NCBI GenBank assembly: GCA_001916035.1
Contig: MNRQ01000020.1
Span: 5,819-69,818, forward strand
DNA length: 64,000 bases
Source: Clostridium sp. 27_14
Lineage (GTDB): Bacteria; Bacillota; Clostridia; TANB77; CAG-508
Direction of reading: 5' to 3'
Every line of letters starts with the position of its first letter. Position 1 is the first letter of the stretch. The notes under the pieces were generated by a model that was not told the origin of the DNA, did no database searches, and saw nothing but the letters and a program-made list of their open reading frames with translations. Positions 624 through 53,572 of the stretch are shown one piece after another. Both the position numbers and the translations under genes were made by a program.

Positions 624-1136
624 TTATACTAAAATTGAAGAAATATGAAATACCCTTCCACAATCTCCTAACATTTTCTGAGTTTCTTTCAAAATTTTAT
701 GATCATCATCTAATAAAATTAGTTTATTATATGCATTACATTTTTCTTTCATTTTTTCTGCTTTTACTATATCCCTATTTTCCTTAGAATACTCATTTAT
801 TTCCTTTGTAATTATTATCCAGTTGTTTTCTTTTACAAATGGTAGATTTTTTCTTAGCCATTCTTTTTTTTGTTCAGTAATCTTCAATGTTCTTGATAAA
901 GTTAAAATATATATATCAATATTCTCTAATTTATCTAATTGTTTCAATACATTTATTACATAATTCACAGGTTCTACTTTTAAATATTCATCTTCCATCT
1001 TTTTAGAAACACTTTCATCTTGATATACATTATAAACAGCAATAGTTCCATCCATATCCACAAAAATAGCTATTTTTTCATTTTCTTTACTTATTTGTTT
1101 TATTTTTTCCATAAATTTTTGCATACTTAATATCAT
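624..1136 (-). CDS. HAD-superfamily phosphatase, 5'(3')-deoxyribonucleotidase-like
   Basis: HAD motif I is present in KIAIFVDMDGTIA. Size is 170 aa, a small cap-less HAD typical of NT5C-like nucleotidases. Confidence 0.5.
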   Translation of the reverse strand: MILSMQKFMEKIKQISKENEKIAIFVDMDGTIAVYNVYQDESVSKKMEDEYLKVEPVNYVINVLKQLDKLENIDIYILTLSRTLKITEQKKEWLRKNLPFVKENNWIIITKEINEYSKENRDIVKAEKMKEKCNAYNKLILLDDDHKILKETQKMLGDCGRVFHISSILV

Positions 1137-1188
1137 TCCTTTATCATAAATTTAAAGCACAAAAGTTAAAGCTTCTGTGCCTTTTTCC

Positions 1189-1765
1189 CTATTTTTTCAA
1201 AACTTTTAAAATTGTATCATAAACTTTATTATTCATTTCTAATACATTAATTTTATCTGTTCTTATAAGGCCTTTTGTTAATTGGATTCTATCAAAATAC
1301 TCAATAAAAAATTTGTTATATTTCTCTATATAACCTTCATTGACTATTCTTCCTTCACCTCCACGCCTTGTAACCGCAAGTTTGGGTGATACCATTAATC
1401 CTAAAAACAAATCTGGATTAACACCTTCTAAACATTGCTTTTGAAAAGCAGAATATTCTTGTTTTGACACCATTTTTTCTTGATAAAATTTCGCTATCAA
1501 TAATTCCTCTGTCTATTAATACAACATCAGCTGTTGTATAACATGCCTTTAAAATACCAGCTTGTGTAATATAATGCATCCATAAATTTGCATCAAATAT
1601 TCCTTTTGGTATTTCTACTGGCAATTTTCCCGCAGATTCTTCAAGAATAATTGTTTTATATCCATCTCTTTCAAGCATATTTACCACTGCATTAATAGCT
1701 GTAGTCTTTCCTGCTTCTGGTGTTCCAGAAAACTCTACCATAAATGGTTTTTCTGATTTCCGCAT
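1189..1765 (-). CDS. P-loop NTPase/kinase-like protein, split by a +1 frameshift
   Basis: Walker A motif SGTPEAGKTT near the N-terminus, and GGAGGG RBS 8 nt upstream of the ATG. ORFs 1418-1765 and 1189-1500 overlap and read as one protein. A T6/A6 run at 1473-1478 lies in the overlap. Confidence 0.5.
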
Positions 1766-1850
1766 AATTATGCCCTCCTATCAGTTATTTTATACCCCAT
1801 ATTTTTATGTTACAAGTATACTATATAAAATTTAAAATTGCAATATTTTT

Positions 1851-2705
1851 TTAAACTCTATCTGAAATTCGAGCAAAATCTTTCAAACTTAATTCTTCTG
1901 GTCTTACATTTTCTTTTAAACTTAATTCTTTCAATATTTTTTCTCCTTGCTCCTTACTATCTAAAATATTAGTATTTACTAAAGAATTTAATAAAGTCTT
2001 TCTTCTTTGTGTAAAAGCACATTTAATAACTTTAAAAAGCTTCTTATCATCATCTACACATATTGGTGGTTCTTTTCTGATTTTAAATTGAATTACCTCA
2101 GAAGTCACTTCAGGAGCTGGTATAAAATTTTCTGGTAATACTTCCAAAATTTCAAAAGCTTCAGCATAATAATATACACTATAAGTAATTGCACCAGCCT
2201 TTTTAGTCCCTGGTAATGCTGTTAATCTATCCGCAACTTCTTTTTGCACCATTACTGTAATAGTAGTTAAATCCAATTTTTCTTCTAACAATTTCATAAT
2301 TATTGGAGTTGTTATGTAATACGGTAAATTCGCAACAATTTTTGCATTTTTTATACTTTCTTTCTTTTTTTCATTTTGTATTATTAATTCTAAATCAACC
2401 TTTAAAACATCTTCATGAATTATTTCAAAATTATCATATAAAGAAAACCTTTCTTTTAGAATTTTTACCATTCTAGAATCTAGTTCAATACATATAACTT
2501 TTCCAGCCCTTTCCAATAATTCTTTTGTTAAAGTTCCAAGTCCTGGCCCAATCTCTATTACTAAATCGTTTTCAGTTATATCACTACTATCTATTATTTT
2601 ACTAACAGCTTCATCACTTATCAAAAAGTTTTGTCCTAATTTCTTATCTGCTTTTATATTATATTTATTCAATATAAATCTTGTTTCATCTAATATAGTC
2701 GGCAT
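1851..2705 (-). CDS. rsmA: 16S rRNA (adenine1518/1519-N6)-dimethyltransferase
   Basis: LGQNFL motif, SAM-binding IEIGPGLGTLT, NLPYYITTPI motif, 284 aa. Confidence 0.9.
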   Translation of the reverse strand: MPTILDETRFILNKYNIKADKKLGQNFLISDEAVSKIIDSSDITENDLVIEIGPGLGTLTKELLERAGKVICIELDSRMVKILKERFSLYDNFEIIHEDVLKVDLELIIQNEKKKESIKNAKIVANLPYYITTPIIMKLLEEKLDLTTITVMVQKEVADRLTALPGTKKAGAITYSVYYYAEAFEILEVLPENFIPAPEVTSEVIQFKIRKEPPICVDDDKKLFKVIKCAFTQRRKTLLNSLVNTNILDSKEQGEKILKELSLKENVRPEELSLKDFARISDRV

Positions 2706-2773
2706 AAAATTCTTCCCTCCAAAATTTTTAAAAACATTAATTTCTTAAATATTATACCATGCTATAATATTTT

Positions 2774-3127
2774 TTACAATATTTGCTTTATATGATTTAT
2801 CTTGACTTTTCCATATTTTATATATACTTCTATTACATCAAATCTAATATAATCTAATTCATGACATTTTTTATACATATAGTATTTTGCTGTTTGATAC
2901 AGATGTTTTTGTTTAAAATAGTTAACCGCTTCTACAGGCTTACCAAAACTATCACTGCTTCTAGTTTTCACCTCTACAAAAACAATTTCATTATCTTTCC
3001 TTGCTATAATATCAATTTCACCTCTCTTAGTATAAAAATTAGTAGTAATAATTTCATAACCATGTTTTTCCAAATATTCTGCAGCCAACTTTTCTCCTAT
3101 TTTTCCTATTCTATTATTTATTCTCAT
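2774..3127 (-). CDS. YraN-family (UPF0102) endonuclease-like protein
   Basis: GEKLAAEYLEKHGYEIITTNFYTKRGEIDIIARKDNEIVFVEVKTRSS matches the YraN pattern. Start moved to the internal ATG at 3127, which is preceded by AGGAGATGAG. Confidence 0.75.
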   Translation of the reverse strand: MRINNRIGKIGEKLAAEYLEKHGYEIITTNFYTKRGEIDIIARKDNEIVFVEVKTRSSDSFGKPVEAVNYFKQKHLYQTAKYYMYKKCHELDYIRFDVIEVYIKYGKVKINHIKQIL

Positions 3128-36397: not shown

Positions 36398-37657
36398 CTA
36401 TCTATCATCTTGATGAACTTGAAACATATCTTTACTTTCACCACAAACTGGGCAAACCCATGAATCTGGTAAATTTTTAAATTCAGTTCCTGGTTTTATG
36501 CCTGCTTTCTCATTCCCAACTTTTGGATTATATATATATTTACACTGTAAGCACTCATAAGATTCTTTTCCTGTTCTTTCTGGTGAAAAATTTCTATAAC
36601 CTGCCACTATTGCAACAATTACAATAAGTAAAAATGAAAGTGCCTTCCATATCCCACTATCACATATTATTATTGCAAACATACCTAATATAGCACTAAC
36701 ACCATAAAGCAATATAACTGCTTGTTTTTGACTATATCCTTTAGCTAATAATCTATGATGCAAATGCCCTTTATCAGCTTTAAAAACTGCTTTTATTGAT
36801 TTTCCCTTTATTATTCTTCTTACTATTGCCATAAAAGTATCAAATATTGGTAAACCCAAAACTATTAATGGTAATACAATTACAGCTGCTGTATATGTTT
36901 TTGCTGAACCTAATATTGATATTATTGATAAAGAAAATCCTAAAAAATTTGATCCAGTATCCCCTAAAAAAGTCTTAGCAGGTGAAAAATTATATGGTAA
37001 AAATCCTACTAAAGCCCCTGCTAAAGCTGTTATCAAAACTATTGACACCATTGATGAACCATTTAATACAAATATTATTAATAATGATACAGCTGATATT
37101 ACAGATATACCAGATGATAAGCCATCTAACCCATCTATCAAATTTATCGCATTTGTTACTATTACTATCCATACTATTGTTAAAATTACAGATATAACTT
37201 CATGCATCTCTGGAAAATTTAGAAATGGCAATGTTATTCCATCTATAGTTATTCCAGATAATACAACTATTATTGCTGCTAATAACTGTCCTGTCAACTT
37301 TGTTAGAGGCTTTATTGTTTTTGTATCATCTATTACACAAAAAATTGCTAATATTATTATTGCTATAAAAAATCCTATTAATTTTTTTGCATATTGTTCT
37401 ACTCCAAATAAGTTTATTGTTTTTTCCAATGACATTACTATTAATAAATATATTGTTGATACTAAAAAACCTAGTATTACTGCTGGTCCTCCAAATTTAG
37501 GTATTGTTCTTTTGTGTGTCCTTCTTTTATCTTTTGGTATATCTTCTGCACCTATCTTTTTTGCTATTTTCATAGTATATGGCGTTGCTACAAATGCTAC
37601 TACAAATGCAAGTATAAATGCAATGGCTATATCTCCCCACATATTAATACCCCCCAT
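36398..37657 (-). CDS. polyprenyl-phosphate N-acetylhexosamine-1-phosphate transferase (MraY/WecA/TagO family) fused to a C-terminal rubredoxin domain
   Basis: NAINLIDGLDGLSSG and ~10 TM segments. The last ~55 aa, YECLQCKYIYNPKVGNEKAGIKPGTEFKNLPDSWVCPVCGESKDMF, match the rubredoxin consensus (CxxC...PGT.F..PD.W.CP.CG..K..F). Start at 37657 or 37642. Confidence 0.8.
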   Translation of the reverse strand: MGGINMWGDIAIAFILAFVVAFVATPYTMKIAKKIGAEDIPKDKRRTHKRTIPKFGGPAVILGFLVSTIYLLIVMSLEKTINLFGVEQYAKKLIGFFIAIIILAIFCVIDDTKTIKPLTKLTGQLLAAIIVVLSGITIDGITLPFLNFPEMHEVISVILTIVWIVIVTNAINLIDGLDGLSSGISVISAVSLLIIFVLNGSSMVSIVLITALAGALVGFLPYNFSPAKTFLGDTGSNFLGFSLSIISILGSAKTYTAAVIVLPLIVLGLPIFDTFMAIVRRIIKGKSIKAVFKADKGHLHHRLLAKGYSQKQAVILLYGVSAILGMFAIIICDSGIWKALSFLLIVIVAIVAGYRNFSPERTGKESYECLQCKYIYNPKVGNEKAGIKPGTEFKNLPDSWVCPVCGESKDMFQVHQDDR

Positions 37658-42909: not shown

Positions 42910-42995
42910 GACGTCCAATAATGAGGTTACCATTGAAAAAATTACTACTCACAATTTTTCAATTAATTATACCTCGGGAAAGGAATGGTGTAATA

Positions 42996-44710
42996 ATGAA
43001 TGATTACAGAACACACAAATGTGATGAAATTAGCCTTTCAGATATAGGCAAAAAAGTTAAAATATCAGGTTGGGTTCAAACAATTCGTGATTTAGGAGGG
43101 TTAGTTTTCTTAGACATAAGAGATATGTACGGAATTACACAAGTTGTAACTTCAGGAAAAGCAGAAGATGTTGATTTTGCTTCACATATTCCATTAGAAT
43201 CTACTGTTACAGTATATGGCGAAGTCAAAAAACGTGACGAAGAAACTATCAACACAAAACTAAAAACAGGATTAGTTGAAATTAGAATTGAAGAAATCAC
43301 TATTTTAGGAAAAAGAACAAAAAATCTACCTTTTGAAATTAACACAAAACAAGACATTAGAGAAGATTTACGCTTACAATATCGTTATTTAGATTTAAGA
43401 AGCGAAAGATTAAAAAATAATCTTATCTTAAGAAGTAAGGTTATACAATATTTAAGAAATCAAATGATTGAACAAGGATTTTTAGAGGTTCAAACTCCAA
43501 TACTAACAAGTTCTTCACCAGAAGGAGCCAGAGATTACCTAGTTCCTAGCAGATTACATCCTGGAAAATTTTACGCTTTACCACAAGCACCACAACAATT
43601 TAAACAATTACTAATGGTTTCTGGTATTGATAAATATTTTCAAGTAGCACCATGTTTTAGAGATGAAGATGCACGTGCAGATAGAGCTCCTGGTGAATTT
43701 TATCAATTAGACATGGAAATGAGTTTTGCAACTCAAGAAGATGTTTTTAATGTAATGGAACCTGTTATGTATAATACTTTTAAAAAATTCTCTGACAAAA
43801 AAATTGCTAATTATCCATTTCCAAGAATCACATATAAAGAAGCAATGTTAAAATACGGTTCAGATAAACCTGATTTAAGAAATCCTTTATATATTATAGA
43901 CCTATCTGACTTTTTCAAAAAATGTACTTTTAAACCATTTATCAACAGAACTGTCAGAGCTATAAAAGTAGAAGGTCACATGTCAAAAGGATTTCATGAA
44001 AAAATGCTTGATTATGCAAAGTCTATTGGAATGGCCGGTCTAGGATATTTAGAGGTTCAAGAAGACATGAGTTTTAAAGGTCCAATTGATAAATTTATAC
44101 CTGACAATCTAAAGCAAAGTCTGATCACTTTAGCCGATTTACACAAAAATGACACTATTTTCTTTATAGCAGATAATGAAAAAAGAGCCACAGAACTTGC
44201 CGGACAAATAAGAATGGAACTAGGTAAAAGATTAGAGCTAATAGATAATAATGTTTTCCAATTCTGTTGGATAATAGACTTTCCAATGTTTGAATTAGAC
44301 GAACATGACAATCATTTTCAATGCCACAAGGAGGATTAGACGCTCTAGAAAATCAAAATCCTTTAGACATTTTAGCATATCAATATGACATTGTTTGTAA
44401 CGGTATTGAACTATCTTCTGGTGCAGTTCGTAACCATGACATAAACATTATGCTAAAAGCCTTTACAATGGCAGGATATACTGAAGAAGAAGTAAAAACT
44501 AAATTTGGCGCTTTATACACAGCATTTCAATTTGGTGCACCACCACACGCTGGAATCGCCCCTGGTATTGACAGAATGTTAATGCTATTATCTAATTCAG
44601 AAACTATCAGAGAAGTAATAGCATTCCCTCTTAACAGTAAAGCCGAAGACCTAATGATGGGAGCACCAGGAAATGTCAGACGTGACCAATTGCGTGATGT
44701 ACACATATAG
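42996..44710 (+). CDS. aspS: aspartate--tRNA ligase (bacterial type), split by a -1 frameshift
   Basis: OB-fold N-terminus, motif [21 protein letters not shown], then after the shift [12 protein letters not shown]...[18 protein letters not shown]...[14 protein letters not shown]. Junction near aatcattttca at 44310-44320. Start reset to MNDYRTHKC because the longer ORF overlaps the T-box terminator. Confidence 0.85.
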
Positions 44711-45413: not shown

Positions 45414-47052
45414 TTAATAAATTTTCATTTTCTCTAAAATTCCATATATTTTGTTACCACTAGGTAACTGTAAAATTTCCTCCTTTGAAAAAACTCTTAA
45501 AGCAACTATAGCTAAAACATATATTATTACTGCAACAATTATTGCTATTAGTGTAGCCAATTTTTTAGCAATTATACCAATTAATACAGAATATGTAAAA
45601 TATGAACAAATTCCCATAATAGTTACAGCAACAAGTGGTTTTATTAAAATCTTTGAAATTGGTAAATTAAGTTTAATATTTTTTCTTAATGCTGTACTAG
45701 CTATTGTAAAAGCTACAACATGACATACTACAGATGCCCACGCTGCCCCACAAGCTCCAAAAGCTGGGTTTGGAACTAATATCAAATTTAAAACCAATTT
45801 TGCAAGTACTCCGGCACCCAAACGCCACCGTTGGTACCATTAATTTTCCATATCCTTGTAATGCTCCATTTATTGTTTGATCTAATATTGTAAATATTAT
45901 TGTTAAAGAACTTATTTGTAATATTGCTTCACCAGCACTTGCATTTGGAAACAATAAACTTAAAATTGGTCCTGCAAATATAAACATTCCAACAGTACAT
46001 GGTAACCCTATTAACATTGATATTAATAATGAAAAAGATGTTTTTTCCGTTATAGTCTTTTTGTCTTTTCTAGCCTTTGCTGCAGATATTGCTGGTACTA
46101 ATGCTGTAGAAAATGCTACATTTATTGAAAGTGGCAAACTTGTAAGCATATCAACTTTACCACCCAAAATTCCATATTGTACCAAAGCCTCATCTTCTGT
46201 CATAAATTGTTTTAAACTTCTTACTACAGTAAAAGAATCTATATTCTTATTTAATGATGACATTATTGCTGTTAAAGCTATTGGAGTTGAAACTAATAAA
46301 ACTTTTTTTATAATACTTTTTACTTTTTCATATTTATAATTTACTGTTGATTTTATCTCTCTTGCCCTTTCCATTTTTTCTGTTTGGTAGTACATATATA
46401 AATATCCAAAACCTGCAAAAGTAGCAAGTGTTGTTGCAAGTGTTGCACCTGCTGCCATCCATTCTGTTGAAACATGTGATATTATTGCAACTATCTCAAC
46501 TATAATTATTGTTAAAACTGTTTTAAAAATTTGTTCTAAAGTCTGTGATCTTGCTGTAGCCTTCAATTCTTGTCTACCATTAAAATATCCTCTCATAACA
46601 GATGCTATTGCTACAAAAAATATAGCAGGTGATAATGCAACCAAAGTCATTTCTGCTTCTGGTATTTGCAACCAACTATATGCTATTACATGTGCACCTA
46701 AAAATAGTAATAGGCTACCTACTAATCCAATCACTGCAAATGTTGCAAATGCTACTTTAAATATTCTATAAGCACCTCTATGGTCTCCTATTGCTACTTT
46801 TTCTGATACTAATTTTGATATTGCATTTGGCACTCCTATTGATGATATTGTCAACAGCATTGCATATATTTGATAACTACTTGATACTATTCCATTTCCT
46901 TTGTCCCCAAAGCCTTCTCTATTTGTTAAATAAAGTGTATATACCATTCCTAATAATTTTATTAAAACTTGCGAAAACATCAAGGTTATTACACCTTGTA
47001 AAAAACCTTGTTTGTTTGTTTTTTCCGATTGTTTATTTCTTACTTTTGTCAT
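45414..47052 (-). CDS. MOP-superfamily flippase (SpoVB/MurJ-like polysaccharide biosynthesis protein), split by a +1 frameshift at an in-frame CGG
   Basis: GFLQGVITLMFSQVLIKLLGMVYTLYLTN...ISSIGVPNAISKLVSE is typical of SpoVB-type flippases, with ~14 TM segments. ORFs 45697-47052 and 45414-45821 join at 45811-45813. Confidence 0.7.
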
Positions 47053-47765: not shown

Positions 47766-48167
47766 ATGGCTAAAACAGAAAATATTGTTTATTATGGTAC
47801 AGGTAGAAGAAAATCTTCTGTAGCAAGAGTAAGATTAGTAGAAGGTTCTGGAAAAATCACAATAAATGGAAAAGATATTGATGAATTTTTCGGATTAGAA
47901 ACTTTAAAAGTTATTGTTAAACAACCTTTAACTGTTACAAATACAACAACTAAATATGATGTAATTTGTACTGTAAAAGGTGGCGGATTTACAGGTCAAG
48001 CTGGAGCTATACGTCATGGTATTGCAAGAGCTTTAAATGAAGCTAATATAGAATACAGACCAGCTTTAAAATCAAATGGATTCTTAACAAGAGATCCACG
48101 TATGAAAGAAAGAAAAAAATACGGTCTTAAAAAAGCTCGTAAAGCTCCACAATTTAGCAAGAGATAA
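47766..48167 (+). CDS. rpsI: 30S ribosomal protein S9
   Basis: [16 protein letters not shown]...[19 protein letters not shown]...[18 protein letters not shown]. Confidence 0.95.
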
Positions 48168-48192
48168 AAAGAGCTTTTATCAAAATCAATTC

Positions 48193-48229
48193 AACCTCAG
48201 AAGTTTCAAGACTTCCGAGGTTTTTTATT
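48193..48229 (+). terminator. rpsI terminator, also the left copy of the 37-bp direct repeat (attL-like)
   Basis: aacctcagaagtttcaagacttccgaggttttttatt: hairpin cctcggaagt/acttccgagg plus a T-run. Identical to 53573-53609. Confidence 0.85.
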
Positions 48230-48560: not shown

Positions 48561-49988
48561 TTACTTTTTTGCTTTTTTGAAAACTTGGCTCTCTTTAATC
48601 CAGGGTGCTAAAACTACGATTTTATCCTCTGTATCTAAATCAATATACATAGGAGCATTAATGTAAACTTGTTCTCCTTTAGTAGCTTGATTCATATACA
48701 CTGGATCATAGCATTCCACTTTTACTAATCCATAATGCTTGTTATAGACAGTATAATACGTTGGCCATAAGAAAGCATTACTTGAGTCCACTACTTCAGC
48801 ATCCGAACAGAAAGTTTCGAGTTTATGGAGTCTACGGTTTTCCTGCATTTCTAGATAATTGTTTCCCAAAATTGGTTGCATCCAAAATCTTCTGCCTTTT
48901 ATTAGTCCTACTGTTCTATTGCATTCTTGTTCTAACATTTCATCTAATGTGTCGAATGATGCATATTTTTTTCTTCTTGAAAAAATTAGGCTTAAATCTG
49001 CTTTATCATATAATTTAATAAAACGATTTTCTTTTAAAAGTCTAAAATTTTTTTGAAGTTTTTTAATAGATTCAATTCCTTTAACAACAATATCAATATC
49101 AGAATTTTCTTGATATCCTTCAATCAGGATGCTTCCTTCAATTCCAATATCATCTAGAGCAATCCCTAACTCAGTTATCATAATGCTAATTATCAATTTA
49201 GTATCTCTTAAAATTGCTTCATCTCCATCATATTGATAAAGTTCTTTTGCTTTATCAAATGGATTATAAATCCTTTCAATTTCGCTTACATCAAATAAGC
49301 ATAGTTCTTCTCCAAACCTATTCACTTTTCCAACCTGTGTATTTGTAAAAAGTTTTGAATATAAAATAGATTCTTCAATTGAGTTGTTTCTTCCATAATA
49401 ATATCCATTGATAACTCTTGAATCTCTTTCTGTAGCATCAACACGGAAATACTTAGGAATTCCAATAACTTTTCCTGATTCATCATAGCAATGTTCTGAC
49501 ACTGTATGGCAAATTGTACCATCTTTCAACTTAAAATAATACGGAAAATTTATCAACTCCTCAATACTTTCAACGTTATATAATTGCTTAACTTCAAAAT
49601 ACAATCTGTTTGCATTAGAGGAATGAATAGTATTCTTTAAAATACTTAATCCATACTTTTTTCTAAGAGTACCTTCAACACTAGAAGATGGATTTGTTGC
49701 TCCGACAAAATCATTAAACCGATTTACAGCATTAGATGCTTTTATAAGGAAAAAAACCGAAATTCCTGATGTCATATAGCTTAATAACTCCAGAAAATAT
49801 GGTTGTTCTTTACTTTCATGATACAGCACACATACATCATCTACAGTAAGCCGTTTTTGAACAAAGTTGGTAGTTTCAAATCCCTCTTTTTGAATATCCT
49901 TGATAATATTATCAACAATATTTCTTTCATAAGCATCAGGTTTCAATACACACAAAGTTACATTGTCTTCAATTCTTGCATTATACAT
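48561..49988 (-). CDS. fusion protein: nucleoside-diphosphate-kinase domain + unknown middle domain + Pol-beta/MNT-type nucleotidyltransferase-like domain with a beta-rich C-terminus
   Basis: The NDK region TLCVLKPDAYERNIV...LYHESKEQPYFLELLSYMTSGISVFFL...FVGATNPSSSVEGTLRKKYG...NTIHSSNA keeps the catalytic His context (N.IH.S). The NTase-like motif is GIEGSILIEGYQENSDIDIVV (G-S...D-x-D). Start reset to MYNARIEDN (ATG 49988) behind a GGAGG RBS. Confidence 0.6.
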   Translation of the reverse strand: MYNARIEDNVTLCVLKPDAYERNIVDNIIKDIQKEGFETTNFVQKRLTVDDVCVLYHESKEQPYFLELLSYMTSGISVFFLIKASNAVNRFNDFVGATNPSSSVEGTLRKKYGLSILKNTIHSSNANRLYFEVKQLYNVESIEELINFPYYFKLKDGTICHTVSEHCYDESGKVIGIPKYFRVDATERDSRVINGYYYGRNNSIEESILYSKLFTNTQVGKVNRFGEELCLFDVSEIERIYNPFDKAKELYQYDGDEAILRDTKLIISIMITELGIALDDIGIEGSILIEGYQENSDIDIVVKGIESIKKLQKNFRLLKENRFIKLYDKADLSLIFSRRKKYASFDTLDEMLEQECNRTVGLIKGRRFWMQPILGNNYLEMQENRRLHKLETFCSDAEVVDSSNAFLWPTYYTVYNKHYGLVKVECYDPVYMNQATKGEQVYINAPMYIDLDTEDKIVVLAPWIKESQVFKKAKK

Positions 49989-50106
49989 AATGATACCTCC
50001 ATTTAATTGTGATAAAAGAATCCCTTTATCTAAACTAAGTAACCTACAGAAGAAATTATACCATCTCTTATATATCTTTGTCAATACATTATGTAAACAT
50101 TAGCTT

Positions 50107-51497
50107 TTATATAAATATTCCTTTTGTATCTGATAATCCAACAATTTCATTATAAGGACTTGTATAAATCTTTTCATTATTACAATAATCGATTACCTGA
50201 TCTAAATTATTAATAATTTTCTTAAACCCCTCTATATATAAGTCAACTATATCAGGATTAGTTAGATAAAACGGTGCTGAACTTGTATCTCCTATAGCAA
50301 AAGTATTATCTATTACTGCTAATGTATTGTCATGGTTAATATCCGAATAATTTTGTCTATATAAATCTATATACTCTTCATTAAATAACCAAGGATATAA
50401 TTTTGATTTATCTTGACTAAATACTTGTTGAAAAATTGGTTGTTTATAAACTGGATGAGTTTGGTATAATCTTGTTGTTAATCCTTCTTCTTTTAATATA
50501 TTCATAATTAATTTTCTAAATTTTCCAGTATTTTTTATATTTAAGTCTGATGTATTGCAAGATATTCTATATAAATGATATACATGTTCATATCCTTTTT
50601 CTATTATTGGTGGTACTAAAAAATCTGTTTTATTAATTAAAAAATCTGTTAATTTATTTGCATTATTTTTAATTTTGCTTATTGTTGTGTTAAAATGTTC
50701 TAATTGATATTTTAGAAAAATGCAATTTAATGCACTAGGTTTATAATTATAACCATATGTAAATGAATTATAATAAAAATTATAATCTCCCTCTATTATT
50801 TTTTGTGCATATGTTTTTACAGAATTTGCATTATTAAATAAGTCCACGTTATTTGTACAAATTCCTCCTAGTTCACCACATGAAGCTAATTGCTTTACTG
50901 GCATAAAACTAAAACATCCTACATCTCCATATGTTCCAACATATTTATCATCAATTTTTGCTCCAAATGCTTGAGCACAATCCTCAATCAACTTTATATT
51001 ATAGTCATCAGCAATTTTTCTAATTTTTTTAAGATTACAAGGATATCCTTGCATATGTACTGCAATTATAGCTTTTACTTTTTTAAATTTATTTAATAAT
51101 TTAATGACATTATTTTCGTCTATATTGTATGTATCTGGCTTTATATCAGCAAATATTGGTATAGCTCCAACCCTTAATACTTGGAATGCAGGAGCAGCAA
51201 AAGTCCATGATGGTACAATAACTTCATCTCCATATGTAACATTACATGCTATTAATGCAGAATGTATTGCAGAGGCTCCTGAATCAAAAAAAGAAAAATA
51301 TTTCGTATGCAAGAAATTTGACATATCATTTTCAATTTCTGAAATTTTATCATTTTTATTGGATACAAATTCTCGTGAACTTAAATATTCATTTAATATT
51401 TCCATATTTTCTACTTTGGGTGGCCATACACTTCTAAAATCATTTACATTATCGCAAATTTTTTTGACTCTTTGTTAAAAAATACTAAATCATTCAT
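50107..51497 (-). CDS. DegT/DnrJ/EryC1/StrS-family PLP-dependent aminotransferase. The N-terminal ~30 codons are reachable only through a -1 shift in an A7 run.
   Basis: SGASAIHSALIACNVTYGDEVIVPSWTFAAPA...IAVHMQGYPCN...IEDCAQAFGA...GCFSFMPVKQLASCGELGG (active-site Lys context FSF..K). The upstream ATG at 51497 has a GGAG RBS and reads MNDLVFFNKESKK, then joins the main frame at the T7/A7 run 51459-51465. The ORF track shows only 50107-51405. Confidence 0.7.
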
Positions 51498-51541: not shown

Positions 51542-51964
51542 CTATAAATAGTTAAAAATTTGTGCTGGATATAAAATCAATTCTTTATTTTTAAATTTAT
51601 CAATATCTACCCATACTGCCTCAGTTTCTATACCATCATCTAGCAAGTCATATTTTTGTTGATAATCTTTATCATTAATATATGCCTCATAAAATAATAT
51701 TAGTTCATGTGCATCTTTTCCTTTATAATTAAATATATTTTCCGAAATCCCTAAAAAATCACCAAGCTCTATTTCTATATTTATTTCTTCCTTAAATTCT
51801 CTTTTTAATGCATCTTCACTTCTTTCAAGAAATTCTATCCCTCCACCTAAGCATCGATAAAACTCTTGATTTTTTGATTTGTCATATCCTTTACTAACTA
51901 ATAATTTATTGCCTTTTCTTACTACTCCAAGAACTATAGGTCTAATTTCTTTAAACTTATCCAT
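51542..51964 (-). CDS. Nudix hydrolase
   Basis: Nudix box GGGIEFLERSEDALKREFKEEINIE (Gx5Ex7REUxEExGU). Own promoter TTGTAA-17-TATAAT and an AAGGAGAAAG RBS. Confidence 0.8.
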   Translation of the reverse strand: MDKFKEIRPIVLGVVRKGNKLLVSKGYDKSKNQEFYRCLGGGIEFLERSEDALKREFKEEINIEIELGDFLGISENIFNYKGKDAHELILFYEAYINDKDYQQKYDLLDDGIETEAVWVDIDKFKNKELILYPAQIFNYL

Positions 51965-52065: not shown

Positions 52066-52818
52066 TTATGTAATATATTTCCTATGTGAATTTTTAACAT
52101 TATTTTGATTAACCATTGCATATTCCATTGTTGTATCTATTTTTATATGCCCTAATAATTTTTGTACTTGTTCTATAGGCATTCCTTTATCAATAGCCAT
52201 CGTTGCCATTGTTCTTCTAAATTTGTGTGGATGCACCTTGTTTATATTTGCTTGTTTTCCTAAATTTCTAATAGCAATTTCAATCCCTGATATTCCTAAT
52301 CTATTATAAGGTTTTATTAATGACACAAATAATGCTTCGTTGTTATCAATTCTTGTTTTTAAATATTTCTCTATATACATTTTACTCTTTGCACTAAAAT
52401 AGACTTCTCTTTCACTATTACCTTTACCTAAAACAATACAACTTCTTTCTTGAAAGTTCATATCTGATATCTTCTAACTGGACTTTTTACAATATAATCC
52501 TCATTTTCTAACCAAGCAAAGAAACTTGATAATGTTCTTCTTATATTATCTATTGTTACCGTACCAACTTTTGAATTACCTTTATAATCAGCTAAATAGT
52601 TTCTTAATATTTCAGTAGTAATTTCACCTATTAGAAGATTTATTGTATCTAACATTTTGGTTATATTATCTTTATAGTAATTTAAAGTTCTAGTAGAACA
52701 TCCTTAAATTTCTTTTGAAGATATAAATTTGTTTAATATATCAGTATTATTCTTTAGTTATTGTATAAAAAATCTTCTGTTGCATTAATTACTTTTTCTA
52801 CAAATAATTCTCCCATGA
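52066..52818 (-). pseudogene. tyrosine recombinase/integrase remnant (multiple stops and frameshifts)
   Basis: C-terminal catalytic region HPHKFRRTMATMAID...LLGHIKIDTTMEYA (HxxR, LGH, Y). The N-terminal core-binding piece LRNYLADYKGNSKVGTVTIDNIRRTLSSFFAWL is in another frame. The GGAGG-ATG start at 52818 is followed by in-frame stops. Confidence 0.75.
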
Positions 52819-53256: not shown

Positions 53257-53572
53257 CACCACCTCTCCTACGATATTTCGCAAAATTCAGGTGGCAAAAC
53301 CACATCTGTTTCTCATCATTTCCTATGTTAATTATTCTACAGTATTATTTAAAATTTGTCTATAATATTAATAAATTTTTATAATCTATTTTTGTTTATA
53401 AATTCATAAATCTTATTCTTAATATGGCTATTTCCCAAATAATAAAATCTAATAAGAGTTATTTAAAATTATAATGTAATAATCTTATAAATACAAAAAT
53501 GTCATTTTTTATTGAAAAATCAACCTTTGTAATTTACAAAAAGATAATATATTTTTTATACAAAAGCTATTA

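Follow-up and report, generated by a model that had tools for sequence, protein, structure and literature searches.

The 64,000-nucleotide stretch of Clostridium sp. 27_14 DNA analysed here (the window) contains a gene that joins a nucleoside diphosphate kinase (NDK) to a Pol-beta-fold nucleotidyltransferase (NTase) in one polypeptide. As part of the best explanation of the data, the product is predicted to be a bifunctional enzyme and the core of a horizontally mobile cassette of aminotransferase, NDK, and NTase. The favored reading, held tentatively at a probability of about 0.4, is a small-molecule amino-nucleotide pathway in which the transferase receives its NTP-type donor from a dedicated NDK. 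The combination of the two modules in a single protein, which was the central claim of the original prediction, was borne out by a Pfam NDK match, an invariant G-S...D-x-D motif, and an AF2 model of the whole protein. The features of the gene and its surroundings are listed in Table 1.

Table 1. Features of the fusion gene, its neighbors, and the island that carries them (positions within the window)
Feature	Position	Strand	Details
Fusion gene	48561..49988	minus	475 aa plus stop; NDK, beta domain, Pol-beta NTase, OB
NDK domain	49569..49988	minus	Residues 1-140; PF00334, PDB NDKs, Foldseek, alignments; catalytic His is residue 122
Beta-rich N-terminal domain of transferase module	49254..49556	minus	Residues 145-245; invariant FPxYF, HT, PKYF
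Helix and Pol-beta NTase palm	48864..49232	minus	Residues 253-375; G285-S286, D297-x-D299
C-terminal OB fold	48564..48830	minus	Residues 387-475; invariant ExxDPxYMNQ loop
GGAGG	50000..49996	minus	7 nt upstream of ATG
Sigma-70-type promoter, candidate	50055..50084	minus	5' of fusion gene; TTGACA, 18 nt, TG-n-TATAAT; 12/12 match, to consensus only
DegT/DnrJ/EryC1-family PLP aminotransferase	50107..51405	minus	432 aa; Pfam E 2.5e-68
Nudix hydrolase	51542..51964	minus	140 aa; Pfam E 8.7e-11; accessory partner in Clostridia
Tyrosine-integrase remnants	52066..52655	minus	Two ORFs: catalytic part of 131 aa, N-terminal part of 65 aa
Left direct repeat, 79 nt	48151..48229	plus	End of rpsI and its terminator hairpin; island boundary
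Right direct repeat	53531..53609	plus	81% identical overall, last ~37 nt identical; 5380 bp from left copy

Counted from a TTG codon at 50084, the reading frame runs without interruption over positions 48561..50084. Its true start is the ATG at 49988 and not this TTG, because the starts of homologues coincide with the ATG, GGAGG lies 7 nt upstream of it, and a candidate promoter occupies 50084..50055. The promoter is a match to the consensus only, and such sites show no excess region-wide (42 found versus 46 expected). The minus-strand orientation of the gene corrects the original prediction, which had also overlooked the invariant DegT partner, the location on a mobile island, and the changes in the active site of the NDK.

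The AspRS gene, a flippase-like gene, yunB, and the integrase in the window look frameshifted. Their appearance speaks for an assembly or frameshift artefact as the source of the fusion, but this explanation is refuted by the distribution of the protein. Uninterrupted ORFs of 466 to 475 aa were found in dozens of clusters of varied sources, one of which comprised 141 member sequences; the fusion occurs in independent genome and metagenome assemblies, two of which (loci L004 and L017) are 100% identical; a stop between the domains was seen only in degraded copies; and the AF2 model of the 475-aa protein (pLDDT 92.2, pTM 0.89) packs the domains together.

The kinase half had been recognized from residues ~10-140, and all of the motifs cited for it (LKPDA, GATNP...GTLR, and NTIHSS) are present. 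Pfam PF00334 covers residues 11-127 (E 2.3e-28, 99.2 bits against a cut-off of 27), alignments with PDB NDKs span residues 11-137 with E values down to 6e-19, and Foldseek matched the N-terminal domain to E. coli NDK 2hur (E 2.5e-13, TMt 0.84, rmsd 1.6, 129 columns). In an alignment of eight NDKs, cassette and canonical, K16, Y56, T98, R109, N119, H122, and E132 were invariant. The fold, the catalytic His, and the surrounding Lys, Tyr, Thr, Arg, Asn, and Glu are common to the cassette NDKs and canonical ones (PF00334; E. coli 2hur, Myxococcus 1nhk), whereas the attached 335-aa transferase and active-site substitutions set the cassette NDKs apart. The first phosphate-binding Arg, located four residues before G-x-T-N-P and presumably equivalent to R88 in human NDK numbering, is replaced by Asn in all seven cassette NDKs of one alignment (A3) and in all ten of another (A4, in which the residue is N93). 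The same seven and ten sequences carry HS[SA]N where canonical enzymes have HGSD. In the Sphaerochaeta locus L010, a separate canonical NDK is present besides the cassette NDK and keeps Arg at the position in question. The fusion protein also scores below every NCBIfam NDK equivalog (NF001908 and others), the best value being 95.4 bits against a cut-off of 155.

In textbooks, NDK is a housekeeping enzyme that stands alone, and the fusion protein is the sole PF00334 match in its own genome. A housekeeping role was nevertheless rejected on the basis of the sub-equivalog score, the Arg-to-Asn change, and the otherwise NDK-free genus: PF00334 was found in 2 of 60 relatives and in none of 36 genomes within the genus. 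Because the genus is otherwise without an NDK, the domain arrived in it together with the cassette. The cassette NDKs constitute a distinct NDK subfamily dedicated to one pathway; the loss of the Arg could instead indicate a weakened kinase.

The NDK and the transferase module (C-module) occur together in at least 35 clusters, at 53 to 100% identity, and all 34 longer proteins with this type of NDK have the same architecture. The fused forms make up a single clade (support, 99/99), and by this tree the fusion arose once. In the split loci L029, L030, L032, L033, and L034, the NDK and the transferase are encoded in different frames, and in L028 they share one frame with a single stop between them. 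This adjacency persists across archaeal and bacterial loci at 37 to 42% identity. Since distant lineages keep both parts as adjacent separate genes, gene order strongly suggests a functional coupling of NDK and NTase, and channelling of a freshly made NTP from the one to the other, as originally proposed, is plausible. An ordinary housekeeping NDK might alternatively have been fused to its neighbor by loss of a stop codon, with no functional coupling, and both its status as the only NDK match in the genome and the one in-frame stop separating the L028 genes, which would make for an easy accident, agree with such an event. This explanation is disfavored and highly improbable, however, given that the domain entered an NDK-free genus with the cassette, that the gene pair has stayed together in both archaea and bacteria, that the subfamily has its own invariant substitutions, that a canonical NDK coexists with it in L010, and that the fusion is kept down to 53% identity.

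The window cassette lies on a 5.4-kb island that has direct repeats at both ends and integrase remnants within it (Pfam Phage_integrase, E 4.8e-22; Phage_int_SAM_4, E 6.8e-5). In one genome of the same genus, the rpsI-yunB gap is 0.85 kb and the cassette is absent; the C-module was found in 0 of 60 relatives and in 0 of 400 sampled genomes of the phylum. The L033 block has flanking integrase and tRNA-Ala genes. Phage or plasmid cargo was rejected as a description of the cassette: 85 pattern matches on viral contigs included none confirmed as a cassette, phage records gave no cassette match, and the plasmid matches, on 16 Streptomyces plasmids, were partial and covered the NTase domain only. 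A known defence system was likewise rejected, with PADLOC returning weak domain-level matches only, of PDC-S09 to the NTase motif (E 1.7e-4) and of PDC-S07 to the Nudix hydrolase.

The transferase half departed in two respects from what had been predicted. A middle region of ~150 aa described as unrecognized proved to be a conserved beta-rich domain plus a helix, which are part of the transferase family itself; in the fold searches, OB-domain matches filled the results, and no fold was identified for the beta domain (residues 145-245). The label "MNT-like" did not hold either, as the module is ~335 aa long, has three domains, and belongs to an uncharacterized, mostly archaeal family. With the MNT proteins of HEPN-MNT pairs, which are small single-domain proteins with an adjacent HEPN, it shares the Pol-beta G-S...D-x-D core as its sole common feature, and no HEPN partner was found among the scanned neighbors. 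The G-S...D-x-D signature itself was confirmed as GIEGS...SDIDIVV at residues 282-302 and is conserved in relatives. The pattern h-G-[GS] followed 9 to 13 residues later by D-h-[DE]-h is matched by G285-S286 and D297-I-D299; G282, E284, S286, S296, D297, and D299 are invariant in 25 relatives; and the G, S, S, D, and D of the palm motif are invariant or nearly so across 134 distant relatives. Candidates for a third carboxylate, judged from sequence positions only, are D331, which is invariant in the 25 relatives, and D328, which is mostly conserved. Pfam PF01909 (NTP_transf_2) matches the fusion protein weakly (E 0.052, 14.4 bits against a cut-off of 21); it matches 22 of the 25 close relatives at E<=1 and exceeds the cut-off in 11 of 18 distant relatives scanned (e.g., P0058 with 30.1 bits and P0079 with 29.8 bits). 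The C-module had no sequence match among solved structures, and its presence in longer proteins or other fusions was sought without a find, which is weak evidence.

The best structural matches of the palm were TUT7 (8oef), Cid1 (4e7x), and Trf4 (3nyb), with VIA Z scores of 7.4 to 7.5 over 86 to 92 residues; because VIA itself calls values in this range common, the matches give the fold and not membership in the TUT/Cid1/Trf4 families. Non-canonical poly(A) and terminal uridylyl transferases have the same G-S...D-x-D arrangement as the cassette palm, but the cassette protein has no PAP-associated domain and is flanked by the beta domain and the OB fold instead. The tail that had been called OB-like (residues 387-475) did match solved OB domains of SSB, RPA, HIN, and Pot1 (VIA Z 8.0 to 9.4, rmsd 2.1 to 3.4, 75 to 87 residues aligned), and Foldseek gave probabilities of 0.98 to 1.0, yet with E>=4e-3. 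Its closest counterparts are nucleic-acid-binding OB domains (SSB, RPA, and the AspRS N-domain).

These structural neighbors, among which OB matches to SSB, RPA, and the anticodon-binding domains of aminoacyl-tRNA synthetases reach Z 9.4, are in keeping with nucleotidylation of RNA or tRNA 3' ends. The OB fold would then hold an RNA, possibly tRNA-Ala, and the palm would add an NDK-made, perhaps amino-modified nucleotide. The mobile-island setting also fits such an activity, which, if real, would make the cassette a toxin, a defence function, or a translation regulator. We regard it as unlikely, though it is the foremost competitor of the amino-nucleotide pathway. Across 25 sequences, both the OB domain (median pI, 5.7) and the C-module as a whole (median pI, 6.0) are slightly acidic, the PADLOC matches to the NTase and Nudix proteins go no further than single domains, the cassette is absent from the viral contigs and phage records searched, and tailing would leave the aminotransferase without an evident task, except where the added nucleotide is a modified one. 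The proximity of the OB fold and the palm to nucleic-acid enzymes, which would also fit an RNA acceptor, was in turn counted against the small-molecule reading. Replacement of the CCA-adding enzyme was rejected, as PF01743 is absent from the source genome and from 40 of 60 relatives, and the C-module from all 60.

By sequence comparison, the C-terminal ~330 aa belong to an uncharacterized, mostly archaeal NTase-OB family of three-domain proteins of ~340 aa. A profile search with the C-module recovered 769 representatives (E<=1e-3), of which 343 reached E<=1e-10; most of the 769 are 310 to 370 aa long and align along the greater part of the 335 positions. The ESM clusters closest to the module consist of archaeal entries of ~340 aa that are named "hypothetical protein" and carry NTP_transf_2. 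The three-domain layout and the invariant G-S...S-D-x-D are common to this family and the cassette module, but the two are just 15 to 27% identical, and the partners of the cassette subfamily are the NDK and DegT. The label COG1665/K09717 for the family comes from one source's name for a member. A literature search for COG1665 returned no paper, a term search of the main text of an NTase classification paper (PMC2794190) gave no match, and combined searches on NDK, nucleotidyltransferase, aminotransferase, AlaRS, Nudix, and DegT returned nothing relevant. Among the cassette loci, no methanopterin genes were found.

In the CitG/CitX and MdcB/MdcG systems, a partner makes a triphosphate donor, and an NTase-fold enzyme transfers it with loss of pyrophosphate. 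The cassette would follow the same logic, with a partner-made 5'-triphosphate donor and Pol-beta-fold transfer, but its partner is an NDK rather than CitG, and no acyl-carrier acceptor is evident. The CitX and MdcG Pfam models had no match in 25 members at E<=1, and CitG (PF01874) was found in none of five cassette-bearing genomes in a search whose controls, E. coli and four archaea, were matched.

Gene neighborhoods were compared in 33 related loci, which represent about ten lineages and not 33 independent cases. A DegT gene was present in 30 of the 33, the three misses being contig-end cuts, a Nudix gene in 22, an alkaline-phosphatase-type phosphodiesterase gene in 12, and an AlaRS gene in 10. 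The best PDB match of the DegT protein was 7b0d (E 2.7e-44), with which it aligns a Lys in the FSFxPxK stretch that we take to be the catalytic Lys of the family. A literature search on the PDB codes 8GYH, 8Y96, 7B0D, and 8VR3 gave one paper, on a Serratia aminotransferase. An MFS pump and an A-PCP enzyme are encoded downstream in L010. Across the 33 loci, no dehydratase or glycosyltransferase recurred, nor did any oxidoreductase capable of supplying the aminotransferase with a keto substrate. No riboswitch or T-box was found in the window region at E<=0.1, and the RNA families detected in 10 loci at gathering score were tRNAs and one pemK RNA only.

AlaRS lies directly downstream of the cassette in five lineages. 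In G061, the one genome in which this could be tested, the cassette AlaRS is a second paralogue, 67 to 69% identical to the housekeeping type, which shows 84.6% identity between genomes; a cassette AlaRS of bacterial type was found on an archaeal contig. Short length was rejected as a hallmark of the cassette AlaRS, because enzymes of ~585 to 620 aa are normal in 60 of 61 genomes of the order. What is left of the AlaRS link is only the extra paralogue of G061 and the adjacency in five lineages. The adjacency also accords with a tRNA-directed activity, as do the tRNA-Ala genes that flank the cassettes of L030 and L033, although these genes may be mere integration sites. The source genome has no second AlaRS and no phosphodiesterase, and therefore both partners are optional.

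In the favored amino-nucleotide pathway, the NDK domain would phosphorylate a nucleoside-diphosphate-type compound to the triphosphate, with ATP as the phosphate source and phospho-His122 as the intermediate. This substrate would probably be non-standard, because the subfamily has lost the phosphate-binding Arg and accompanies the transferase even where a normal NDK is present. The transferase would attach the nucleoside monophosphate to a hydroxyl (or amino) group of an acceptor, releasing pyrophosphate, and the aminotransferase would aminate either the nucleotide-linked moiety or the acceptor. The most likely product would be a small conjugate of a nucleotide, either an amino-nucleotide or an aminoalkyl-nucleotide, and not RNA. 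The Nudix hydrolase and the phosphodiesterase could serve in clean-up or self-protection, and the cassette AlaRS, or the A-PCP enzyme and MFS pump of Sphaerochaeta, in aminoacylation, self-resistance, or export. The leaning toward a small molecule is due to the acidic OB domain and C-module, the MFS and A-PCP genes of L010, the AlaRS paralogue of G061, and the gene logic of 3'-aminonucleoside clusters.

According to the published accounts of such clusters, namely, those for puromycin (Pur10/Pur4/Pur7/Pur3) and Photorhabdus AdgA-E, they contain aminotransferase, Nudix, phosphatase, and MFS genes (PMC11641026, PMC9239236). The pur and adg clusters share with the cassette the grouping of aminotransferase, Nudix, and phosphatase-type enzymes around a nucleotide substrate, and an MFS gene occurs in one cassette locus. 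The likeness is one of gene kinds: the cassette adds the NDK and the NTase-OB protein, its phosphatase is of the alkaline-phosphatase superfamily, and a Pur10-type NAD-dependent dehydrogenase is described for the known clusters but does not recur in the 33 loci. Since no oxidoreductase recurs, the analogy is without its first enzyme (Pur10/AdgB type).

The same partners could be read as a nucleotide-sugar (amino-sugar) pathway for surface glycans. The transferase would use NTP to activate a sugar phosphate, DegT would transaminate an NDP-keto-sugar, the NDK would recycle NDP, and the Nudix hydrolase and phosphodiesterase would trim NDP-sugars. Typical substrates of DegT-family enzymes are NDP-keto-sugars, the relatives that best match the cassette enzyme in NCBIfam and the PDB are sugar or inositol aminotransferases, and the substrates of Nudix and type I phosphodiesterase/nucleotide pyrophosphatase families include NDP-X compounds. 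A sugar pathway is nonetheless distinctly improbable: a recurring dehydratase, oxidoreductase, or glycosyltransferase is missing from the loci, known sugar-1-phosphate nucleotidyltransferases have a fold different from that of the Pol-beta module, and the AlaRS paralogue, the altered NDK site, and the second NDK in Sphaerochaeta would be left unexplained.

More speculatively still, and with a slightly smaller chance, the cassette might make a stable alanyl-adenylate mimic or a related aminoacyl-nucleotide analogue that poisons the AlaRS of competitors. The transferase would join an NMP to a small acceptor of the hydroxy-ketone type, DegT would turn the nucleotide-linked ketone into an amine, and the specialized NDK would supply or re-charge the nucleotide donor. 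Such a poison would explain why five lineages carry a full-length AlaRS of their own, including the second paralogue of G061 and the bacterial-type enzyme on an archaeal contig. It would also explain the phosphodiesterase and Nudix hydrolase as possible immunity hydrolases, the MFS pump in one locus, and movement on small integrative islands.

The occurrence of the same pair in split and fused form provides a Rosetta-stone link and, with it, the first biochemical handle on an orphan NTase family that is large and has no characterized member or solved structure. The NTase-OB family probably takes as its donor a triphosphate produced in situ. The cassette spans the boundary between archaea and bacteria, brings an NDK to gut Clostridia that are otherwise without one, and sometimes brings a spare AlaRS. 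These features suggest a trait that can be passed on, for example, an antimetabolite, a modified nucleotide, or a function directed at translation. A conserved NDK-NTase gene that travels on a small mobile island together with an aminotransferase points to a pathway, not described so far, for making or attaching a modified nucleotide.

Residues 11-127 of the fusion protein matched the nucleoside diphosphate kinase (NDK) domain in Pfam (E 2.3e-28; 99.2 bits against a cut-off of 27), residues 11-137 aligned with solved NDKs (best E 6e-19), and residues 280-344 gave weak Pfam matches to NTP_transf_2 (E 0.052) and Polbeta (E 0.069). AlphaFold2 models were obtained for the whole protein (pLDDT 92.2, pTM 0.89; 25-sequence alignment) and for residues 140-475 (pLDDT 94.2, pTM 0.91; 134-sequence alignment). 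With Foldseek, the whole model matched NDKs only (2hur, E 2.5e-13, TMt 0.84, rmsd 1.6), and the C-terminal module had no match at E<=1e-3. In a VIA-align fold comparison against 48,161 chains, the modelled residues 253-375 resembled the palm of TUT7, Cid1, and Trf4 (Z 7.4-7.5 over 86-92 residues), and residues 387-475 were predicted to form an OB fold like those of SSB, RPA, HIN, Pot1, and the AspRS N-domain (Z 8.0-8.7 over 75-87 residues, rising to 9.4 when Foldseek's top 996 chains were re-examined); residues 145-245 form a beta-rich domain in the model. G282, E284, S286, S296, D297, and D299 were invariant across 25 relatives, and in 134 distant relatives the G, S, S, D, and D of the transferase motif varied little or not at all. 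These domain matches, fold comparisons, and motif invariants confirmed the original prediction of an NDK-nucleotidyltransferase fusion with an OB-like tail; its "MNT-like" label was not reasonable, the transferase module being built of three domains (beta, palm, and OB) across residues 145-475. Because the closest folds bind RNA and DNA, nucleotidylation of RNA or tRNA 3' ends retains some weight as a function but is unlikely; the median pI is slightly acidic for both the OB domain (5.7) and the whole module (6.0; n = 25), a mild argument against general RNA binding.

The gene lies in a single long ORF in the six-frame listing of the window, and the predicted start was right, since homologues begin at the same ATG, which follows a GGAGG motif and gives a product of 475 aa. 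The putative promoter agrees at 12 of 12 positions with TTGACA-18-(TG)TATAAT; because such sites are not over-represented in the region (42 against 46 expected), we count it simply as a consensus match.

Residues 140-475, used as a query, matched 55 proteins, including about 35 clusters of 466-480 aa that carried PF00334 at 53-100% identity, one of them representing 141 sequences, and about 17 stand-alone proteins of ~337 aa at 35-47% identity. All 34 longer proteins with a cassette-type NDK shared the fused architecture or were fragments of it. The gene was present in nine species-representative genomes (eight uncultured Clostridia and one Sphaerochaeta, the latter at 50% identity) and on 24 metagenome contigs; with these genomes, contigs, and clusters, the assembly artefact that had been named as a possible refutation can be set aside, and it is virtually certain that the fusion anatomy is real and conserved. 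A Rosetta-stone link came from loci L029, L030, L032, L033, and L034, in which NDK and transferase are adjoining genes in different frames, and from L028, in which they share a frame with one stop between them. A maximum-likelihood phylogeny of the transferase module grouped all the fused forms in one clade (support 99/99), among them an N-terminally cut form, P0039, that retains the end of the NDK domain; judging from this tree, they derive from one fusion event. Degraded cassette copies on four contigs (L025, L026, L027, and L031) shared their internal deletions (residues ~98-287 of DegT, ~1-53 of NDK, and ~83-238 of the transferase), had frame changes as well, and look like one decaying lineage.

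When 1.84 billion representatives were searched with a profile of the transferase module, 769 proteins matched at E<=1e-3, 343 of them at E<=1e-10; the majority were 310-370 aa long and aligned across most of the module. The NTP_transf_2 cut-off was passed by 11 of 18 distant relatives scanned, and none of 10 scanned matched an NCBIfam model. Source names included "predicted nucleotidyltransferase" and, once, "COG1665 K09717"; one cluster came from Bathyarchaeota, the closest ESM-Atlas clusters were archaeal hypothetical proteins of ~340 aa, to which the module is profile-related, and no solved structure matched it in sequence.

The fusion was the sole PF00334 match in the window's genome (1.65 Mb, 91.6% complete), and two of the 60 relatives, none of them among the 36 in its genus, had PF00334; the NDK domain therefore came with the cassette, to which it is dedicated. 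It is also altered. In cassette NDKs, fused or split (7/7; 10/10), an Asn stands four residues ahead of G-x-T-[ND]-P at a position occupied by Arg in solved NDKs and in the separate canonical NDK encoded 4 kb from the fusion in the Sphaerochaeta locus L010; we take the replaced Arg to be R88. Cassette NDKs have HS[SA]N instead of HGSD and keep the invariant Lys, Tyr, Thr, second Arg, Asn, His, and Glu; the fusion protein did not reach any of the NCBIfam cut-offs for NDK equivalogs (95.4 against 155). The NDK on the L032/L033 contig has an extra N-terminal region of ~115 aa with no Pfam match.

Partners were counted by local tblastn over 33 related loci, which represent about ten lineages rather than 33 independent cases. 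The DegT-type aminotransferase was the invariant partner (30/33; the misses, L002, L021, and L022, end at contig edges), followed by Nudix (22/33, with 0/8 outside Clostridia), a type I phosphodiesterase of ~389 aa from the alkaline-phosphatase superfamily (12/33), and AlaRS (10/33). The window's DegT matched 7b0d (E 2.7e-44), with a Lys opposite the one in the FSFxPxK stretch of that chain, presumably the catalytic Lys of the family. Gene order and strand vary in Clostridia loci; distant loci have the fixed order DegT, NDK, transferase, AlaRS, with genes that abut or overlap. In L010, DegT is followed by the fusion, whose reading frame changes near residue 80 of the NDK; next come an MFS transporter and an A-PCP protein of 1020 aa, the final 450 aa of which had no Pfam match. 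One cassette lineage (L005-L008, L018, L019, and L024) has, directly after DegT on the opposite strand, a protein of 576-602 aa that may be a regulator; apart from an HTH domain at the N-terminus, its body had no match.

The short AlaRS was ruled out as a cassette-specific feature because, across the order, the sole full copy in 60 of 61 genomes is an AlaRS of ~585-620 aa; this short enzyme (NCBIfam NF002436 type) has no usual C-terminal part. The genome of locus L003 has two: one is 84.6% identical to the housekeeping enzyme of the window's genome, with the same neighbour, and the cassette copy is just 67-69% identical to both housekeeping enzymes. Every cassette AlaRS scored as full-length, over the equivalog cut-off, so that by sequence a working synthetase (a spare, a resistant copy, or a supplier of Ala-tRNA) seems to fit better than a cut-down biosynthetic paralogue.

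Several features pointed to mobility. The segment between the direct repeats contains the three genes of the cassette as well as two integrase fragments; the repeat copies are 81% identical overall, with no difference in the final ~37 nt, which are the terminator hairpin of rpsI. In the same-genus genome L046, rpsI and yunB are 0.85 kb apart without a cassette; the other eight fetched loci had no rpsI inside their 1.5-kb flank. An intact integrase precedes DegT in L033, where tRNA-Ala follows AlaRS and a methyltransferase, and tRNA-Ala lies immediately upstream in L030. Two proteins, aIF-2 (over the equivalog cut-off) and Rad50, mark L032 and L033 as archaeal, and despite this their cassette AlaRS is of the bacterial short type, NF002436. 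The wider transferase family was absent from all 400 sampled genomes of the phylum.

PF01743, the head domain of the canonical CCA-adding enzyme, was found in 10/10 bacterial control genomes and not in the window's genome or in 40/60 relatives, including 29/36 of the same genus. Replacement of that enzyme was ruled out because this absence showed no complementarity with the transferase module, which was present in 0/60 relatives.

The window's cassette ORFs are intact, unlike those of AspRS, a flippase-like gene, and yunB, each of which appears split into two overlapping ORFs, possibly by frameshifts that reflect assembly errors or decay; YunB in relatives is ~240 aa. Two other ORFs are listed with the features, and the pairing of MatE with Cytidylate_kin2 in one of them is unusual.

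Coordinates of the cassette features and other ORFs
Feature	Sequence	Coordinates	Strand	Details
Long ORF with fusion gene	window	48561..50084	-	
Start codon	window	49988		ATG
GGAGG motif	window	50000..49996		
Putative promoter	window	50084..50055		
Direct repeat, 79 nt	window	48151-48229 and 53531-53609		brackets 5.38 kb
AspRS	window	42921..44710		
MurJ/polysaccharide-flippase-like gene	window	45414..47052		
yunB	window	53782..54568		
670-aa ORF	window	59499..61511	-	two MatE transporter domains, C-terminal cytidylate-kinase-like domain (Cytidylate_kin2, E 3.7e-50)
419-aa ORF	window	36398..37657	-	glycosyltransferase family 4 domain (MraY/WecA type), C-terminal rubredoxin domain
Sphaerochaeta fusion	L010	8001..9388		
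Integrase/tRNA-Ala-bounded block	L033	4991..11904		DegT-NDK-transferase genes and short AlaRS
The one AlaRS of the window's genome	L035 (contig C20, other than the window's)	1096..2904		

For the cassette we propose, at a probability of about 0.4, a small-molecule amino-nucleotide pathway in which phospho-His122 would lift a diphosphate compound, probably a non-standard one, to the triphosphate, the palm would move the monophosphate moiety onto an acceptor that the beta and OB domains hold in place, DegT would aminate the nucleotide-linked or acceptor part, and Nudix and the phosphodiesterase would provide clean-up or producer protection. Channelling of fresh NTP from NDK to transferase, as originally suggested, is reasonable. 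The NDK would take CitG's role as maker of the triphosphate donor, with a small molecule as acceptor; CitG was absent from five of five cassette genomes in a search whose controls, E. coli and four archaea, were matched. The gene logic resembles that of 3'-aminonucleoside clusters, which contain an aminotransferase (Pur4/AdgC), a Nudix protein (Pur7/AdgD), a phosphatase (Pur3/AdgE), and an MFS pump (AdgA) (PMC9239236, PMC11641026). A Pur10-type dehydrogenase was missing from all 33 loci, which is the main weakness here. The fusion is a new domain architecture made of known folds, around which an uncharacterised mobile cassette is built.
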